Shown here piece after piece: positions 111 through 7,151 of a stretch of 7,197 bases of DNA. Position 1 is the first letter of the stretch. Each line of letters begins with the position of its first letter. Source of the stretch: an uncultured archaeon (GTDB lineage: Archaea; Iainarchaeota; Iainarchaeia; Iainarchaeales; 0-14-0-20-30-16); assembly GCA_964565125.1 (NCBI GenBank), contig CAZMCX010000038.1:1-7197 (forward strand), in the 5' to 3' direction. The notes beneath the pieces are model-generated. The model saw only the letters and a program-made list of their open reading frames with translations. It did no database searches and was not told the DNA's origin. Both the position numbers and the translations under genes were made by a program.

Positions 111-377
111 TTAAAGAAATTTTGCCCTAAATATTAATCCAATTGTAACTACTGTTCCAACTGTTAATAAAAATGCCATTAGTGGATTTGTAAGATAAAA
201 ACATAAAAACCAATTTGATATGCCTGGTAATTTACATACAGTTTCTTGAGCAACCCCTGAAACAATTTCCCCAAAAACATTTGAAAGTATAACATATATA
301 ATTGCACCAATAATAAATTCAATCATAGCAGGAATTTTTAATATAAACTCAATTATTTCTTCAATCATAAGATGCAA
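111..377 (-). CDS. small hydrophobic (predicted 2-3 TM) membrane protein, function unknown
   Basis: An 88-codon ORF is long for AT-rich DNA, where stops are frequent. The translation has long hydrophobic runs (IIEFILKIPAMIEFIIGAIIYVILSNVF; WFLCFYLTNPLMAFLLTVGTVVTIGLIF). The codon at 377 is TTG; the first ATG is at 368 (85 aa). No clear Shine-Dalgarno precedes either start. I recognise no family. Confidence 0.5.
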   Translation of the reverse strand: MHLMIEEIIEFILKIPAMIEFIIGAIIYVILSNVFGEIVSGVAQETVCKLPGISNWFLCFYLTNPLMAFLLTVGTVVTIGLIFRAKFL

Positions 378-618
378 TAAATCATTTACTAATAAAAAAT
401 TATCGGTTGCCTCGCAAATTTCTTTTAGTTGTCACTTTTGTTAAATGCTATAAAACAGAAAAAGAAAATATGAAATGCTTCGCGACTAAACCTAACCATG
501 ATTTAACGGCTCATTTCATTCGCCCAAATTTTTTCTTAGTGACGACAGGGGGCTTAGTCCTTCGGACATATAGTCTACTTCGCAGAAATTTTATAATTTG
601 AAATAAGAAAACTTAATT
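378..618 (-). other. 240-bp non-coding spacer with repeated TCGC-N0-2-AAATTT motif and potential RNA structure (candidate regulatory region or small RNA)
   Basis: No convincing ORF on either strand. The plus-strand motif TCGC followed by AAATTT occurs at 412-421, 520-531 and 580-592, and a related CTTCGC at 478-483. A small hairpin GTCC-TTC-GGAC lies at 557-567. Segments 484-492 and 551-559 are complementary over 9 bp. The single imperfect position is a G-U wobble if the minus strand is transcribed and an A-C mismatch if the plus strand is. This helix and the 557-567 hairpin share positions 557-559, so they are mutually exclusive. A sigma70-like TTGCGA (417-412), a 17-nt spacer and TATTAG (394-389) on the minus strand could drive the 111-377 ORF. 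Confidence 0.3.
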
Positions 619-1122
619 TTAAAATTTCCAACCTTCTACTCTGCACATTTCAATAATGTTTATACATTCAATATTATACTCTTTACATACAAATGGAATC
701 TTTACTTTATTTCCTCTTAACTTTTCTTCTGTTACTATAATTCTACCTTTTACTGTTTGAAATAATGTTTTTTGTGGGGCGCTTCCCATTTCAACCGCTA
801 AAGCAATAACAAAAGGATCTGCCGCTGCAGTTTCATTGTCAGATTTTGCTAATGACGGATACTTCCTAAGAATTTCTCTGACAATTTCCATTTGTCTTTC
901 ATCTAGTTTCTTAAAAAATTTTTTCTGCTTTTTTGCCCATTTCTTTAATGAGTCATCCATCAAAGAAATCTCCTTAAGAACTTCTCTATGAGAAATTAAT
1001 TGCCCTTTACTAATTAAAGTTTCAACATTTTTCCAAAGCGTAGGAAAAACATCTATTGGGTAACGCCTATTTAACTCTATAAGTGAGCTTGAGTCAATCA
1101 CATAGTAGTTTATGGTCGTCAT
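619..1122 (-). CDS. DUF4411-family PIN-like protein (putative nuclease effector/toxin partner of the upstream ImmA/IrrE-type gene)
   Basis: 167-aa ORF. Its ATG at 1122-1120 overlaps the upstream TGA in an ATGA junction. It has an N-terminal hydrophobic strand ending in Asp (YYVIDSSSLIEL), a central AADPFVIALAV segment, and a C-terminal IIVTEEK...KIPFVCKEY segment. This motif order matches what I recall of DUF4411 (PIN-like fold). That family typically lies immediately downstream of COG2856 peptidase genes, as it does here. Confidence 0.8.
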   Translation of the reverse strand: MTTINYYVIDSSSLIELNRRYPIDVFPTLWKNVETLISKGQLISHREVLKEISLMDDSLKKWAKKQKKFFKKLDERQMEIVREILRKYPSLAKSDNETAAADPFVIALAVEMGSAPQKTLFQTVKGRIIVTEEKLRGNKVKIPFVCKEYNIECINIIEMCRVEGWKF

Positions 1123-2282
1123 TTTTTAGCCTTACTTATTACTTTATCTAAATTCTTTGCTTTGATTGAAAGATAATCTAATGCATCGCTGTGCGTGATA
1201 AAACCTTTATCAACATTATTAACAACAAGAGAAACAAATTTCTGCCCTCTCTCGCTTAGGCACTGTTTGTCTGCTGTCGGCCTAAATCCGCCTTTTTTCT
1301 CTGCTTTTTCTTTTGGTTTTAGAATTTCTGGTTTATATCTTTCAAGAACTGCATCATATTGTTGTTTTGAAATAAAATTTAATTTTGACATATTGTAAAG
1401 AAGCATTGCTTTGCTTACTTTGAATGCTCTTGAAAGCTTGTTTAATGTTTTTGTTTCTATTATAACCTCTTTATTTTTACTAAACTCTGCTTTTGCTAAC
1501 ATATCTGGAAGCAAAAAAGCTGATGAGAACTCATTACACCACTTTTCAACACCAGCAACATTTTTAATAAATAAAGTATTTTCAGGCATACTAACTCCAC
1601 TTTCATTTAGGAGAACATGCCCAACCTCATGCATAAGTGTAAATATTCTCGCTTCAATCAGGTCTTTTGAATTAACAACAATAACAGCAGAGGAATCATC
1701 AACTAAAGTAAATCCTCTTGCGTCTTCCACTGGCATAGGTATTTGGAAAACAATTATGTTTTTGTCCTCAATAATATCTCGTAAAAAATTAAAAACCTCA
1801 TAGGATGTTTTGAGTTTCTTTTGTGTTCCTTCATCAAACTTGAATTCTGCCCTGTATTTTTCAGCTATTTCTTTAGGATTTTCTGATAATTTTATCGTTG
1901 GGATTGCTTTAACTAAACTTGTGTTAAGGTTTTCTGATAATTCTTTGCTTATTTTTTGAAGTCTCCTTGCTCTTCTTATTGCTAATATTGTTTTTTTATC
2001 AAATTTTCCTTCTTTCTCTGGAAGCATTCTATAATCTTTAGGAAGTGGCTTTTCTTTAGGTACTTCAGATAAGAAGAATACAGTAAGCGGTCTCTTGACG
2101 ATTTTGGCTAAATCTTCTAATTGCTTTAAAGTTGGTTTTGTCTCTCTATTGAGCCAACCATTAAGGATATTTTGGCTTATTTTCAGTTTTTTAGTTATTT
2201 CTTCTTCGTTCCAACCCGAACTACCAATAACCCACTTCAAAATTTCGGGTTTGACTTCAACAGTTAATGTTTTTCGTGGCAT
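1119..2282 (-). CDS. XRE-type helix-turn-helix fused to ImmA/IrrE-family (COG2856, Peptidase_M78) zinc metallopeptidase
   Basis: The N-terminus (..ITKKLKISQNILNGWLNRETKPTLKQLEDLAKIVKRPLTVFF) fits the XRE HTH pattern seen at the front of COG2856 proteins. An HExxH zinc motif, HEVGH, is encoded at 1617-1631 in the context FTLMHEVGHVLL. The ORF track extends to a TTG at 2297. I prefer the ATG at 2282-2280, which sits 1 nt after the hsdS stop and 7 nt downstream of GAAGGT (387 aa). Confidence 0.85.
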   Translation of the reverse strand: MPRKTLTVEVKPEILKWVIGSSGWNEEEITKKLKISQNILNGWLNRETKPTLKQLEDLAKIVKRPLTVFFLSEVPKEKPLPKDYRMLPEKEGKFDKKTILAIRRARRLQKISKELSENLNTSLVKAIPTIKLSENPKEIAEKYRAEFKFDEGTQKKLKTSYEVFNFLRDIIEDKNIIVFQIPMPVEDARGFTLVDDSSAVIVVNSKDLIEARIFTLMHEVGHVLLNESGVSMPENTLFIKNVAGVEKWCNEFSSAFLLPDMLAKAEFSKNKEVIIETKTLNKLSRAFKVSKAMLLYNMSKLNFISKQQYDAVLERYKPEILKPKEKAEKKGGFRPTADKQCLSERGQKFVSLVVNNVDKGFITHSDALDYLSIKAKNLDKVISKAKK

Positions 2283-2283
2283 T

Positions 2284-3675
2284 TTACTTACCTTCAATTA
2301 ATTTTTCAACTTCTTGTTTTGCTTTTTCCAATTCTTCTTTTGCTTCTTTCTGCAACTGCTCTGCTTTTTGCATTCGCTTTTTCACTTCTTCAGCGATTTT
2401 ATTTTGAACAGCAAGAAAGGGGAGAGGGATTTTAATGGCTTCTGTTGTTTCTCTAATTATCCCCATGATTGTCCCACCCGTAATATCTCTATTTATTTGC
2501 ATTTGACCTAATTGTGATTTAAGAATTGAAAATACGAAGTATGGATTTGCTTCTTGTTTAACTCTCATTAAAAAGACATGTTCATTTATGTTTACTTCTT
2601 CAAAAGGATAATCTTCAGGAACAATCCCTATTTTCCCCGTTGTTGCCCCATCTTTTACTATAATTATATCTTTTCTCTGAACTTTACTTTTTAATTGTTT
2701 TTTATGAAATTCCATTGGTATAAACTTTAAGTCGCTTGTGGCAATTGTTCCGTCCCTTAAAACATGCTCACCACCCAAACTTGGCACACCTTCGCTAATT
2801 TGTCTTACACCACCTTTTGGTCTTTGTCCGCTTTCTAATTTTTCAGCAATATATTTCAACTCCTTAACCTCAAACTTCCCTTTCTTTATAGCTTTCTCAA
2901 CTTCTTTAAACTTCGGCTGGTAATAATAAGAGTCTGCCCTTTTGTTCTGGACGACTTCATCAGAATTAACTATATAAACCATTTTATCTTGTAATTCAGG
3001 CAGTTTTATCCCCAATTCATTAAGAACATGATTATTTATTGAGTCTAAGAGTTTCTCGGCTTCAGATTCTTTGAATCGTTTAAGAGAATATGCTTTGTCC
3101 ATTAATGCGACGATTTTATCTTGTATTTCTAAAGGTGGGAGAGGGATTCGTATATTTTTAATTGCAGGAATCGTAATATTTCCTTGTAAACCTCCTGTTT
3201 TAGAACGAGTTGTTTGTAGTTTACCTAATCTACTATTTAAAAATAAACTTATATATTTGGGATTGATATTTTTATCTTCTTTTAATCTAAACCGAATCAT
3301 AAAAGAGCCAAAAGCAAATTTATCTGCTTCTTTAGGCACTCTTGCAACTACTCCGATAGTCCCACTTCTAGAAATTAAAAAATCACCCTCATTTACATAA
3401 TCAGAATCCATCAATTCTGATTTTTTAGCATAAACTAAGTTATCTAATTTTACTTTGTTTTCTTGTAGATTTTGGATTCTTAAAAAGGGAATTTCGCCTT
3501 TAGGATAGGCTTTTACAGAAGCACCATAATTAATTTTCTCGATTAAATCTCCTAGTTTTAATGTTTTCCACTTAGATTTTTCAAGATTTTTGATTAACCA
3601 AAATTCAGGTCTGTAAAAATGAGGGTCTATCCTATTCTCAACTTCATCAGCATAAATTGTAAAACATTCGGTCAT
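2284..3675 (-). CDS. hsdS: restriction-modification specificity subunit (HsdS-like, two target-recognition domains)
   Basis: 463 aa with the duplicated HsdS layout. TRD1 starts ..VENRIDPHFYRPEF and TRD2 starts ..NKRADSYYYQPKF. Each TRD is followed by a conserved spacer helix (IRIPLPPLEIQDKIVALMDKA.. and IKIPLPFLAVQNKIAEEVKKR.. plus a coiled-coil tail). AGGAG lies 8 nt upstream of the ATG at 3675, and the gap to the hsdM stop is 3 nt. Confidence 0.9.
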   Translation of the reverse strand: MTECFTIYADEVENRIDPHFYRPEFWLIKNLEKSKWKTLKLGDLIEKINYGASVKAYPKGEIPFLRIQNLQENKVKLDNLVYAKKSELMDSDYVNEGDFLISRSGTIGVVARVPKEADKFAFGSFMIRFRLKEDKNINPKYISLFLNSRLGKLQTTRSKTGGLQGNITIPAIKNIRIPLPPLEIQDKIVALMDKAYSLKRFKESEAEKLLDSINNHVLNELGIKLPELQDKMVYIVNSDEVVQNKRADSYYYQPKFKEVEKAIKKGKFEVKELKYIAEKLESGQRPKGGVRQISEGVPSLGGEHVLRDGTIATSDLKFIPMEFHKKQLKSKVQRKDIIIVKDGATTGKIGIVPEDYPFEEVNINEHVFLMRVKQEANPYFVFSILKSQLGQMQINRDITGGTIMGIIRETTEAIKIPLPFLAVQNKIAEEVKKRMQKAEQLQKEAKEELEKAKQEVEKLIEGK

Positions 3676-3678
3676 AGT

Positions 3679-5451
3679 TTATACTCCTGTATACGTTTTA
3701 GGATTTCTTAAAAAATTTTTCCATTCCCCTAACATATTAGGTAAATCATTAACGTCTGGTCTTCCAGTTGCGTCATAGCCAATATGTTTGGTAATAGCCA
3801 TAAAGATAGGATAATTACTTGCTTTCTCTCCTTCCCTTTTCTTCTGTAAAAATAATAATGATGCTTTAACACCTGCACCAGAGGATACAAATGCCAACTG
3901 TGGCAGAGAGACAACTGCTAATATTTTTGCATTTTTATTAATAAAATCTCTCACATATTGAAGTGAAGAGTTGGTTAATATTCCATCGGGTAAAACTATG
4001 CCCATTTTTCCACCAGATTTTAATAAATCTAGACATCTCTCAATAAATAAAATTTCAGTTCTTTGTGCTTTTCTATCCTTTCCTAATTCAAAATTATTTA
4101 AGACTTCTTCATCTTTTATAACTGCACCAAAAGGCGGGTTTGTAAGTAAAACGTCATACTTATTTGGTTTAATCTTTTTTGCAGGGTCAAAATTTTTATA
4201 ATTGGTTAAGGCGTTATTACATTCAATATTGCTATGTCCATCTTCATGGATAACCATATCCATCATAGCAACACGGGCAATTCTATCATTGATTTCAATT
4301 CCAAAAATCTGTTTATGTGAAAAATCCCAATTTAATCTGTCAATTGTTTCTTTATCTTCTTTATATTTTTCAGTAACTTTATTGAGAACATGTCTCATTG
4401 AATAAAGCAAAAATCCGCCACTACCACAAGCAGGGTCAATTAAATAATCGTCTTCGTCTGGGTCAATAACTTCAACCATAAACTCTACAATTTGTCTTGG
4501 TGTGAAATATTGTCCATACTCGCCTCTAAACAATTTTCCTAAAAAGTTTTCAAATGCTCTGCCCTTTGCATCTAAATCTGTTGTTCTCAAAGAAATATCC
4601 TGTAGATGTTCAACAATTCTAAAAATCATTGTGTCTGGCAGTTCTAATTTTGCCTTGAAAACTTCAGAATTTTTAGATTGGACAAATTCATATCTTTCTT
4701 TTACTCTTTTTGCTACATTTTTTGGTTCTTCGTATGTTCCAATTTGGAATTCATAATATTGTCCATGAGGTGTGAATCTTTCATCATATAATTTTGTGAT
4801 AAGCAATTTACTTATTTCATCAAAAGCGACAGCAGGATCTCTTTTCCCACCTTCCCAAATCTCATCATGGCAAAGTTGAAATTTATTACTCAATTCATTA
4901 AAATTAGCTTTTCTTAAATCCCATTCTGGATCACCTCTTTTATATCTATATTTAGGCTCTTTGCCATATTTTATAGGAATATCAGCTATTCTATATTTTT
5001 CTAATTTTTCAATTGTAGAAGGATGTTTTTCTAAATTATAAGCTAACCTTTCATTATCACATACCACCCACAAATATTTTGCATTCAATAAATTTGCATT
5101 ACCTAGCCCTTCTCTTTTCGCTTCTTCTATATCTTTTTTTGTAGCATTTGCTTTTGTTTCAACAACAATAAAAACAATTTCCTTTTCGTCGTCTTCATAA
5201 ATGACTATATCTGCTGGTAGTTTTGGTTCTCTTCTTGGCGGATAAACTTCTGTATTTATTCTTTTTTCTGGATATTTATATTTTTCAATTAACTCAAAGT
5301 AAGATCTTGCACGTATTGGCTCTTCTGGATCCTTAAAATTATATGACTTTTTTACTGTCTTGTATGTTATTTTACCGTCCCTTACAATAAATAACCCTTG
5401 TTTCTCACCGAGTGCTATTATTTCCTCTGTTAGTTTGTATTCTTTTGGCAT
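3679..5451 (-). CDS. hsdM: gamma-class N6-adenine DNA methyltransferase (HsdM / N6_Mtase-like) with an N-terminal PD-(D/E)xK, HSDR_N-like nuclease-fold domain
   Basis: The MTase motifs appear in gamma order: GQYFTPR, then motif I DPACGSGGF (4411-4437), then motif IV NPPF (4129-4140). The N-terminal ~180 aa is extra compared with a plain HsdM. It carries LPAD(85)IVIY...IVFIVVE(102)TK(104) at 5152-5211, a textbook PD...ExK arrangement as in HSDR_N. Residue numbers follow the 594-aa track ORF. That ORF starts at a GTG at 5463. The ATG at 5451-5449 lies 1 nt after the upstream stop and 8 nt downstream of GGTGG, so I prefer it (590 aa). Confidence 0.9.
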   Translation of the reverse strand: MPKEYKLTEEIIALGEKQGLFIVRDGKITYKTVKKSYNFKDPEEPIRARSYFELIEKYKYPEKRINTEVYPPRREPKLPADIVIYEDDEKEIVFIVVETKANATKKDIEEAKREGLGNANLLNAKYLWVVCDNERLAYNLEKHPSTIEKLEKYRIADIPIKYGKEPKYRYKRGDPEWDLRKANFNELSNKFQLCHDEIWEGGKRDPAVAFDEISKLLITKLYDERFTPHGQYYEFQIGTYEEPKNVAKRVKERYEFVQSKNSEVFKAKLELPDTMIFRIVEHLQDISLRTTDLDAKGRAFENFLGKLFRGEYGQYFTPRQIVEFMVEVIDPDEDDYLIDPACGSGGFLLYSMRHVLNKVTEKYKEDKETIDRLNWDFSHKQIFGIEINDRIARVAMMDMVIHEDGHSNIECNNALTNYKNFDPAKKIKPNKYDVLLTNPPFGAVIKDEEVLNNFELGKDRKAQRTEILFIERCLDLLKSGGKMGIVLPDGILTNSSLQYVRDFINKNAKILAVVSLPQLAFVSSGAGVKASLLFLQKKREGEKASNYPIFMAITKHIGYDATGRPDVNDLPNMLGEWKNFLRNPKTYTGV

Positions 5452-5452
5452 T

Positions 5453-6292
5453 TTATTCCCCACCTTCTGGGATTTTTTGATTTAACCATGGCATTTTCTC
5501 TTTAGGAGTAACTGCGTACCATCCTGTATTAATATTTCCTTTAATGGCTTGCTTAATTAATTCACAAGATTTTTTGATTGCCCCTATTACTGTTCGGAGG
5601 TCTTTTTCATTTTTAATTTTTATTTCACCCCAGTTTTCATGAAATTTAATATTTTTTACTCCTTCTATTTTTTGTTGATTTGTATAGATATATAAAACCA
5701 TCAATTTTTTTCTAAATTTTAAATATACAAAATTCTTTTCTGGAGAATAGTAGGTTATTGCAGTTTTTGCATAATGGTGATAAATTTCTTCATTTATTTT
5801 TAGAATAGCTTTGTCTAATTTTAAGAATAAATCTTGAATATTTTTAGAAACATTCTTTCTTTTTATATGATGTTCTAAATCATACTTACTCTCTTCTTTT
5901 TTTACTTCTTCTTCACCGAAGGGTTCTGGTTCCATATTCTTGATTTCTTCTTTTAATTCCAACACAGGAACGGGACATTCTTTCCAATCATGCACCCAAC
6001 AAACAACTAAATCACATTTTCTTCCTTTTTTGATATCGTCTAAATGTGACTTAAAACCAGAACTATTATATTCAAACTCTATAGAAATTTTTTCCCACCC
6101 CTTTCCTGTCCTTCTTCTTGCTATGCAATCTGGGTACCCGGTTTTAATTTCTTCTACGTACATGTTGAGATCTTTAAGAATCTTTCCAAACAATAGAACC
6201 ACCCCCTGTTCATTAACGGGGCTATAGACCATCCCTCTAAAATTGATTATACTTCCAACAACAGATTTTTCTTCATATTTTTCTTCTTCCAT
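5453..6292 (-). CDS. two-domain hypothetical protein: N-terminal restriction-endonuclease-fold-like domain, acidic linker, C-terminal DUF5655-like domain
   Basis: 279 aa. AAAGGGGA lies about 7 nt upstream of the ATG at 6292, and the gap to the radC stop is 3 nt. The N-terminus reads ..VEEIKTGYPD(55)CIARR..KISIE(72)FE(74)YNSSGFK(81)SH..CDLVVCWVHDW. That places acidic and Lys residues on alternating strand-like segments, as in PD-(D/E)xK folds (inference). Residues 115-135 form a Glu/Lys-rich linker. The C-terminus (..LFLKLDKAILKINEEIYHHYAKTAITYYSPEKNFVYLKFRKKLMVLYIY..) resembles the DUF5655 pattern as I recall it. Confidence 0.7.
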   Translation of the reverse strand: MEEEKYEEKSVVGSIINFRGMVYSPVNEQGVVLLFGKILKDLNMYVEEIKTGYPDCIARRRTGKGWEKISIEFEYNSSGFKSHLDDIKKGRKCDLVVCWVHDWKECPVPVLELKEEIKNMEPEPFGEEEVKKEESKYDLEHHIKRKNVSKNIQDLFLKLDKAILKINEEIYHHYAKTAITYYSPEKNFVYLKFRKKLMVLYIYTNQQKIEGVKNIKFHENWGEIKIKNEKDLRTVIGAIKKSCELIKQAIKGNINTGWYAVTPKEKMPWLNQKIPEGGE

Positions 6293-6295
6293 TTT

Positions 6296-7015
6296 TTAAT
6301 CCCCTTTAATCAAACCTTTATCTAAAAAGCTTGTATAGTTATCATTTCCTATTATGATGTGATCTAATACCCTTAAACCAACCAAATCACAGGCTTTTAT
6401 TAACCTATTTGTTATTTCTATGTCTTCTTTTGTTGGTTCTGATTCCCCACTTGGGTGATTATGAACAAATATCAATGCTGAAGCGGATTCTCTAACCGCT
6501 TCCTTAATTACTTCTTTTGGGTCTACAATACTGCTACTTAAACTGCCCTCAGAAAGAGTTATGTCTTTGATAATCTTATTTCTTCCATCTAATAACATCA
6601 CTTTGAATATTTCTTTTTTAAAATCTCTCAAATAAGCCTTATAATAATCGACTACATCTTCGTTTGTTCTAATTCTTTTTCTAATCCCTGATTTTTGTCT
6701 TAGAAATCTTTTTCCTATTTCTAAAGCTGCCTTTATTTCAGCAGCTTTTAACATACCCACGCCCTTTATTTTGCATAACTCTGAAATACTGACAGAATCT
6801 AAATCTCTAAAACTACCAAATTCCATTTTTAATTTTCTAGCTAGATCAATGGCACTACTTTTTTCTTCACTTTTTCCTTCGCCAGTTCTTAAAATAATAG
6901 CCAATAGTTCAGTATCAGAGAGTTTATCCGGCCCATATTTTATCAAACGTTCTCTTGGTCTTTCATCTTCAGGCCACTCTTTAATTGTAGGTTTATATTT
7001 ACCTTCTTTTTTCAT
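6296..7015 (-). CDS. radC: RadC-family protein (COG2003; N-terminal helix-hairpin-helix region plus C-terminal JAB/MPN metalloenzyme domain)
   Basis: 239 aa. The N-terminus ERPRERL..G...LSDTELLAIILRTG....A..LARKL...FGS...L....ISELCKIKGVG..KA..IKAALEIGKR is the canonical full-length RadC N-terminus. The JAMM-type motif HNHPSG is encoded at 6446-6463, followed by EPTKEDIEITNRL and VLDHIII. AAGGAG lies 10 nt upstream of the ATG at 7015. Confidence 0.9.
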   Translation of the reverse strand: MKKEGKYKPTIKEWPEDERPRERLIKYGPDKLSDTELLAIILRTGEGKSEEKSSAIDLARKLKMEFGSFRDLDSVSISELCKIKGVGMLKAAEIKAALEIGKRFLRQKSGIRKRIRTNEDVVDYYKAYLRDFKKEIFKVMLLDGRNKIIKDITLSEGSLSSSIVDPKEVIKEAVRESASALIFVHNHPSGESEPTKEDIEITNRLIKACDLVGLRVLDHIIIGNDNYTSFLDKGLIKGD

Positions 7016-7151
7016 TTTTCTCTAACTCCTTTTCAACAAAAATCTCAAACTGTCTTGAAATAACCAATCCCTTCTTTTTACAGTATTCTTTATAAGAATT
7101 ATAGAGTTTTTCATCAACCTTTAGAGTTATATTTTTGCTTCCCATAGTCAT
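6999..7151 (-). CDS. small ribbon-helix-helix (CopG/Arc-like) DNA-binding protein; candidate operon controller or antitoxin-like regulator
   Basis: Not in the supplied ORF track, presumably because it is below the length cutoff. Hand translation from the ATG at 7151-7149 to the TAA at 7001-6999 gives 50 aa: MTMGSKNITLKVDEKLYNSYKEYCKKKGLVISRQFEIFVEKELEKNEKRR. The pattern is beta-strand (ITLKVD), helix, a Gly turn, then a second helix. This closely parallels CopG-type RHH proteins. It overlaps the radC start by 17 nt. No obvious SD is present, so the transcript may be leaderless or have a short leader. Confidence 0.6.
   Translation of the reverse strand: MTMGSKNITLKVDEKLYNSYKEYCKKKGLVISRQFEIFVEKELEKNEKRR

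Follow-up and report, generated by a model that had tools for sequence, protein, structure and literature searches.

We analyzed a pair of overlapping genes in a 7,197-nt stretch of archaeal DNA from contig CAZMCX010000038.1 (hereafter the window). Coordinates refer to the whole window, and all of its long open reading frames (ORFs) lie on the minus strand. The two genes, at 1119-2282 and 619-1122, probably constitute a self-contained type II toxin-antitoxin (TA) or abortive-infection module of the VapBC52 type, related to RosmerTA, in a DPANN-type archaeon. The pair is an intact copy of a kind of module that is already known, and it occurs here in a new host lineage. The first-pass annotation had described a fused XRE helix-turn-helix (HTH)-ImmA/IrrE peptidase gene followed by a DUF4411 gene, and Pfam identifies these three parts (HTH_3, Peptidase_M78, DUF4411). 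It had also proposed a TA or abortive-infection role, which is the best reading that the sequences offer. The two genes are listed below.

619-1122, minus strand: DUF4411 PIN-like toxin gene, a VapC52 homologue (167 amino acids, aa)
1119-2282, minus strand: HTH-XRE::M78 (ImmA/IrrE) peptidase gene, a VapB52 homologue (387 aa from the ATG at 2282; 392 aa from the TTG at 2297)

The structure 9vzy, published in 2026, shows the VapB52-VapC52 complex of Mycobacterium tuberculosis (Rv2515c/Rv2514c; PMC13273310). VapBC52 was shown to be functional as a TA system in 2019, and its structure and dissection followed in 2026 (PMC13273310). VapC52 is a PIN tRNase. The N-terminal HTH of VapB52 binds the toxin dimer, the middle domain is an IrrE-type peptidase, and a C-terminal helical domain occludes the active site. 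Single-stranded DNA (ssDNA) activates the peptidase, and the N-terminal domain is then removed at a conserved 'FR' motif (PMC13273310). The HTH-COG2856 plus PIN architecture was predicted to be a three-component TA system in 2009 (PMC2701414), and DUF4411.1 downstream of a fused HTH-DUF955 gene was catalogued by Matelska et al. in 2017, who found the DUF4411 gene to be usually mono-cistronic in Actinobacteria (PMC5499597). Zinc-peptidase antitoxins with interchangeable toxins are a validated class, RosmerTA (bioRxiv 10.1101/2022.05.11.491447; PMC10440598). The earlier statement that the pair had not been characterized is thus outdated, given the full-length homology of both proteins to VapB52 and VapC52 and the predictions of 2009 and 2017. 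In itself the pair adds little: it extends to a DPANN archaeon a family for which structure, toxin activity, and trigger were all reported in 2026.

The putative DUF4411 toxin

The product of the smaller gene is a nuclease of the PIN fold, and the four acidic residues of its active site are all preserved. It matches Pfam DUF4411 at E 3e-35 over 159 of 159 profile positions, and a profile built from 50 diverse DUF4411 proteins hits chain 9vzy_D, which is named 'DUF4411 family protein', at E 4e-31. D10, E51, D102, and E133 are invariant in these 50 representatives, which share 34-58% identity with the window toxin; the first-pass annotation had named a lack of conserved PIN-type acidic residues as evidence against its proposal. 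The D6A mutant chain 9vzz_A provides a point of reference: VapC52 D6 aligns with D10 of the window protein. An AlphaFold model of the toxin has a pLDDT of 82, and when it was compared with the PDB by Foldseek, the top ~45 matches were nearly all VapC or PIN proteins, at modest scores (E from 7e-3, TM 0.5-0.65). The predicted catalytic residues, identified by column conservation, are encoded at the following positions.

1093-1095, minus strand: D10
970-972, minus strand: E51
817-819, minus strand: D102
724-726, minus strand: E133

The DUF4411 protein matched no RmrT model in PADLOC 2.0. This collection has no DUF4411 toxin model, and current defense catalogues would miss the pair.

The putative HTH-peptidase antitoxin

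The larger gene encodes a protein of three domains: an N-terminal XRE HTH, a zinc peptidase (HExxH plus Glu), and a helical C-terminal domain. Antitoxin residue numbers count from the TTG at 2297 (392-aa numbering). Its parts and sites, placed by Pfam, alignment, and column conservation, are listed below.

~2082-2222, minus strand: HTH
2028-2036, minus strand: D-Y-R motif
1389-1769, minus strand: M78 domain
1617-1631, minus strand: HEVGH motif
1590-1592, minus strand: switch position, S236
1545-1547, minus strand: third zinc ligand, E251
~1122-1310, minus strand: helical C-terminal domain

Pfam matches Peptidase_M78 at E 6e-15 and HTH_3 at E 1e-5, both of them, like the DUF4411 match, far beyond chance. 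Residues 16-389 align with residues 3-386 of 9vzy_A (E 1.6e-18). Sixteen RmrA models in PADLOC are also matched, the best of them covering residues 27-320 at E 1.2e-20. On the minus strand, 1617-1631 reads CATGAGGTTGGGCAT, which translates to HEVGH. In 70 antitoxin homologues, H223, E224, H227, and E251 are invariant. D88-Y89-R90 of the window protein aligns with the D-F-R cleavage site of VapB52, and this D-(Y/F)-R motif is kept almost without exception among the same homologues (D in 68/70, Y or F in 70/70, R in 70/70).

Gene junctions and integrity of the pair

A specificity (S) subunit gene of a restriction-modification (RM) system lies immediately upstream of the antitoxin gene and ends with a TAA at 2284-2286. 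The longest peptidase ORF starts from a TTG at 2297-2295 and overlaps the S gene by 14 nt; an alternative ATG at 2282-2280 lies 1 nt past the S-gene TAA. The ATG is the likelier start because homologues begin at a matching 'MP(R)K' and public gene calls give 387 aa. At the other end, an ATGA at 1119-1122 is common to the peptidase stop and the DUF4411 start, and the two genes are translationally coupled. These junctions had all been described in the first-pass annotation, both start alternatives and the HEVGH motif included, and every one was confirmed in the sequence.

We compared the pair across 80 species-level genome loci containing toxin homologues of 38-89% identity, in which genes were called, neighbors clustered, and representatives annotated with Pfam. 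The peptidase gene lies directly upstream of the toxin gene in 75 of the 80 loci, and the remaining five are truncated or degraded. The 4-nt overlap seen in the window is kept in 63 of the 75 loci with the pair.

Both window ORFs are full length with their catalytic and cleavage motifs intact, and the module is intact. This bears on the idea that the two genes are decaying or inactive passengers without a present function. Degraded DUF4411 fragments do occur in a few loci (L066, L069, and L074). Set against the state of the window ORFs and the presence of an identical toxin sequence on five contigs, however, the idea is scarcely credible.

Occurrence of the pair without RM genes

The pair behaves as a mobile two-gene unit, because it stands alone in some loci, lies on plasmids that lack RM genes, and has different neighbors in close relatives. 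It is alone in 10 of the 40 loci visible on both sides. On bacterial plasmids it adjoins SIR2, CBASS-like, and TIR genes, with no RM gene. Among the nearest relatives, with toxins 85-93% identical, the neighbors are a DUF5655 gene, a glycosyltransferase gene, an STT3 gene, or a type IIG enzyme gene.

The sister population (L090-L093), whose toxin is 93% identical, has a DUF5655-like gene directly upstream of the pair and no M-S genes. The DUF5655-like protein of the window is 45-46% identical to the product of this gene (L090 372-1280, L092 790-1569). The M-S genes were either inserted in the window lineage or lost in the sister population. We considered the DUF5655-like gene as a general partner of the pair and rejected it, since it is limited to the window clade (3 of 30 upstream ORFs). 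A mainly viral distribution of the module was likewise rejected, with 10 matches in 2.9 million viral contigs.

Linkage of the pair to RM genes

An RM link was counted when an RM gene lay in the same co-directional run as the pair, with gaps of ≤150 nt, in loci with at least 2.5 kb visible upstream. The first-pass annotation had suggested computing how often the pair co-occurs with RM genes. In 22 of 49 informative loci (~45%) the pair comes after an RM gene of its own run, one of the 22 being the window's own contig; these counts cover this pair and no other TA family. The pair lies between methylase-side and nuclease-side genes in eight loci. Of the 45 RM-like genes seen within ~10 kb, 39 are at position -3, -2, or +1 relative to the pair. 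The partners include the Type IIB-like pair of the window (described below), single-chain Type IIG enzymes, and Eco57I-type methylases accompanied by a PLD + SNF2 helicase of ~1060 aa, an arrangement that occurs in two gene orders. L030 contains a classical Type I arrangement (hsdM-hsdS-pair-hsdR), and L077 and L082 contain Type III arrangements (mod-pair-res). RM-linked loci are scattered over the antitoxin tree. Because they are so scattered and their partners so heterogeneous, the link has arisen or persisted many times; it is real and non-random. Of our results, only this repeated placement within RM operons goes beyond the literature we found. Spanning several unrelated architectures, it provides a testable lead on the coupling of RM and abortive-infection layers.

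Several further observations concern these loci. Thermoplasmatota and other archaea have a two-gene system that recurs beside or around the pair: an Eco57I-type methyltransferase of 1130-1245 aa, which often has a TaqI_C specificity domain, and a ~1060-aa PLD-nuclease + SNF2/ResIII helicase. The order helicase-methylase-pair occurs in L033, L044, L054, and L061, and the order methylase-pair-helicase in L039, L053, L065, L070, and L021. L011 codes for a TPR protein of 1269 aa whose PIN domain is of the PIN-TPR-GreABC type (559-4368), two genes upstream of a methylase-pair unit, which is a further predicted defense component of the same island. In L074, from Woesearchaeota, a RadC gene comes after the degraded DUF4411 fragment of 85 aa, not far from a fused S/M-like gene of 841 aa (10100-11186 and 12920-15445), an echo of the RadC-RM-toxin neighborhood of the window.

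The positional data raise the question of whether the pair serves RM systems specifically. It could act as an RM-coupled back-up that fires when restriction is inhibited, as in the guarding attributed to PrrC, PARIS, and Ronin, or that responds to DNA ends or ssDNA generated by restriction or by its failure. The linked and enclosed loci, the clustering at three positions, the range of RM architectures, and the scatter over the antitoxin tree all point in this direction. So do the ssDNA trigger reported for the homologue VapB52 and the precedents of PrrC and Ronin. A peptidase that senses ssDNA or DNA ends could read the products of restriction or its failure, and such a dedicated second layer would account for the repeated capture of the pair between methylase and nuclease genes. 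The role would then cover Type I, IIB/IIG, III, and methylase + PLD-helicase systems in archaea and bacteria. We nevertheless regard this possibility as unlikely. The pair has a dedicated antitoxin, which in the solved homologue buries the toxin active site. Many loci and plasmids carry the pair without any RM gene, and neighbors vary even among the nearest relatives. The residue at the switch position does not differ between RM-linked and other antitoxins; the back-up is favored by positional statistics and by no protein feature, and those statistics cover this pair and no other TA family. The specific version put forward in the first-pass annotation, in which the RM complex itself would hold the nuclease latent as described for PrrC, found no support: the toxin has its own antitoxin, and numerous genomes and plasmids carry the module by itself. 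A dedicated antitoxin likewise makes the PrrC and Ronin models, in which RM proteins silence the toxin, a poor fit.

The pair often lies just before a nuclease gene, an arrangement that would also suit an addiction module that keeps the operon together, or an XRE HTH that acts as a controller (C) protein to time the neighboring RM genes. Neither would have a direct antiviral role. The pneumococcal phd-doc locus (tvrAT), located between hsdM/S and hsdR, was found to serve mainly as a regulator, and in structure the VapB52 HTH comes nearest to C.Csp231I, an RM controller protein. In the window, however, the pair comes last and leaves nothing downstream to control. The peptidase and PIN catalytic sites are strictly conserved, which a plain repressor would not need, and relatives of the RosmerTA class protect against phage. 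We therefore consider a purely operon-keeping or regulatory role improbable, more so than an RM-coupled back-up.

Proposed mechanism of the module

The reading that we prefer, a self-contained VapBC52-type module, can be outlined by analogy with its relatives. The antitoxin HTH domain would bind the toxin dimer and the C-terminal domain would occlude the active site, as in the solved homologue. A danger signal, which is ssDNA for VapB52 and CapP, would activate the peptidase. The antitoxin would then cleave itself at the D-(Y/F)-R motif, which is invariant and lies between its HTH and peptidase domains, and the freed PIN nuclease may cleave tRNA and halt translation. The RM operon would supply transcription and a first layer of defense, with the pair as a second layer whose silence would not need RM proteins.

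Several points weigh against this model. Toxicity and neutralization, tRNA cleavage, and ssDNA-induced autocleavage are known solely from the M. tuberculosis pair and from no archaeal member, so their transfer to the window would be by analogy. The putative substrate of the PIN nuclease likewise comes solely from a relative at roughly 30% identity. VapC52 overexpression protected Mycobacterium smegmatis from phage D29, an effect seen with overexpressed toxin and not with the native pair (PMC13273310). A purely autonomous module does not account for the strong positional link to RM genes. Finally, the cysteine switch of VapB52, C229, is a serine (S236) in the window. Of the 70 antitoxin homologues, 40 have Asp at this position, 17 have Ser, and 10 have Cys. 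Auto-inhibition and trigger may therefore differ from those of VapB52. The distribution hints at an aspartate switch or another form of auto-inhibition in most archaeal members, and it suggests that the VapB52 activation mechanism is not general.

The upstream RM enzyme and the gene array

The remaining genes of the window are as follows.

2284-3675, minus strand: specificity (S) subunit gene (463 aa, two target-recognition domains)
3679-5463, minus strand: RM subunit gene, earlier called 'hsdM' (590-594 aa)
5453-6292, minus strand: DUF5655-like gene (279 aa; overlap with, or 1-nt gap to, the RM subunit gene)
6296-7015, minus strand: RadC-family JAB protein gene (Pfam RadC E 5e-43; NCBIfam RadC 247 bits, above cut-off)
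6999-7151, minus strand: ribbon-helix-helix-like ORF (50 aa; first gene of the array; 17-nt overlap with radC)
111-377, minus strand: hydrophobic ORF (88 aa; apparently two to three membrane helices, judged by eye)

The two genes upstream of the pair had been labeled hsdM and hsdS. The S subunit stands: its two Methylase_S stretches (Pfam E 2e-32), a match to PADLOC Specificity_I, and similarity to the EcoKI S subunit in the PDB (E 4e-14) support it. The Type I hsdM label does not, and a Type IIB-like RM subunit with a nuclease domain is the better description. Pfam detects HSDR_N_2 and N6_Mtase/Eco57I in this protein. The N-terminal domain resembles PD-(D/E)XK nucleases, with a D...ExK arrangement formed by the D of 'ADIV' (5212-5214) and 'VETK' (5161-5163), and it is followed by a gamma-class N6-adenine methyltransferase with NPPF at 4138-4140. 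Among solved structures its best match is RM.BsaXI, a Type IIB enzyme (8w0p_A), with an alignment that starts at residue 28 and has an E of 4e-34. Because the M protein carries a PD-(D/E)XK nuclease domain, the system is not R-less; judged from these matches, the RM subunit and the S subunit with two target-recognition domains have the look of a complete Type IIB-like enzyme and not of a Type I remnant that lacks R. A complete enzyme of this kind would account for the absence of hsdR, and no HsdR-like gene is visible in 14 kb of L001, an 18-kb groundwater metagenome contig with an identical toxin sequence.

Seven co-directional genes encode, in order, the ribbon-helix-helix-like protein, RadC, the DUF5655-like protein, the RM subunit, the S subunit, the antitoxin, and the toxin. 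They are packed with gaps of ≤3 nt or overlaps, which suggests that the array at 619-7151 (minus strand) is a single transcription unit of ~6.5 kb with the TA pair as its last two cistrons. The ribbon-helix-helix-like ORF has weak matches alone, to RelB/DinJ, a RepB regulator, and a PHROG Arc-like repressor (E 3e-4). The DUF5655-like protein matches Pfam DUF5655 at E 2e-4, below the cut-off, and PADLOC PDC-S18 at E 2e-9.

On L001, the array is flanked by housekeeping genes, with the DNA polymerase D large subunit gene downstream and aIF2-beta upstream; the contig also carries DUF424. The nearest genome loci are from Woesearchaeota. Because of these housekeeping genes and nearest loci, we conclude that the host is a DPANN-type archaeon and the locus is chromosomal.

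The hydrophobic ORF lies downstream of the toxin gene, across a spacer of 241 nt. It matches no family and is confined to contigs of the same population (L001, L003, and L004). A UUCG hairpin in the spacer folds no better than shuffled sequences on either strand (z 0.9 and 0.5), and Rfam and tRNA scans of the window gave no matches. Scanning for sigma-70 promoters and terminators, with a model that is inapplicable to an archaeon, gave fewer promoter-like sites in the window than in shuffles (24 vs 31.6).

Comparison with known systems

We compared the window to characterized RM and TA systems. The RM genes resemble Type IIB systems of the BsaXI/BcgI kind in having nuclease and gamma N6-adenine methyltransferase domains in one subunit and a separate S subunit with two target-recognition domains. 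PrrC/EcoprrI and Ronin share with the window a lethal effector gene that is physically joined to RM genes. PrrC and RonA lack an antitoxin, and RM proteins keep them silent, whereas the window has a dedicated antitoxin, a PIN effector, and a nuclease domain on M. Ronin further consists of HsdM and HsdS, with no nuclease at all, and a small membrane toxin, in contrast to the M protein with a nuclease domain and the PIN nuclease toxin found here.

VapBC52 has the overlapping two-gene order of the window and a DUF4411 PIN toxin whose four acidic residues are shared by the window toxin. Both antitoxins are ~390-415 aa long and contain an XRE HTH, an HExxH+Glu peptidase, and a helical C-terminal domain; they can be aligned end to end and have (F/Y)R at the HTH/peptidase junction. 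The two pairs are distant relatives, one actinobacterial and one archaeal, and the window differs in its serine at the cysteine switch and in the location of the pair at the end of an RM operon. The anti-phage system RosmerTA (RmrT/RmrA; Millman et al. 2022, Ernits et al. 2023) also uses an ImmA-type zinc peptidase antitoxin, often with an N-terminal HTH as in the window, and PIN-like partners have been noted for the ImmA node. The toxins tested for RosmerTA include a membrane-depolarizing protein and not a PIN nuclease, and DUF4411 lies outside the PADLOC RmrT models.

The three-component TA systems described by Makarova in 2009 and Matelska in 2017 have the same architecture as the window. 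In those studies the peptidase was proposed to cleave its own HTH, and links between PIN genes and Type I RM were noted. They saw no PIN toxins in Type II-like contexts, whereas we found Type IIB-like, IIG, Type III, and methylase + PLD-helicase partners. CapH/CapP, ImmR/ImmA, and DdrO/IrrE contain peptidases of the same M78 family, which are activated by DNA damage or ssDNA and cleave an HTH protein. These systems use a separate HTH repressor and have a transcriptional output. In the window, HTH and peptidase form one chain, and the predicted output is release of the toxin.

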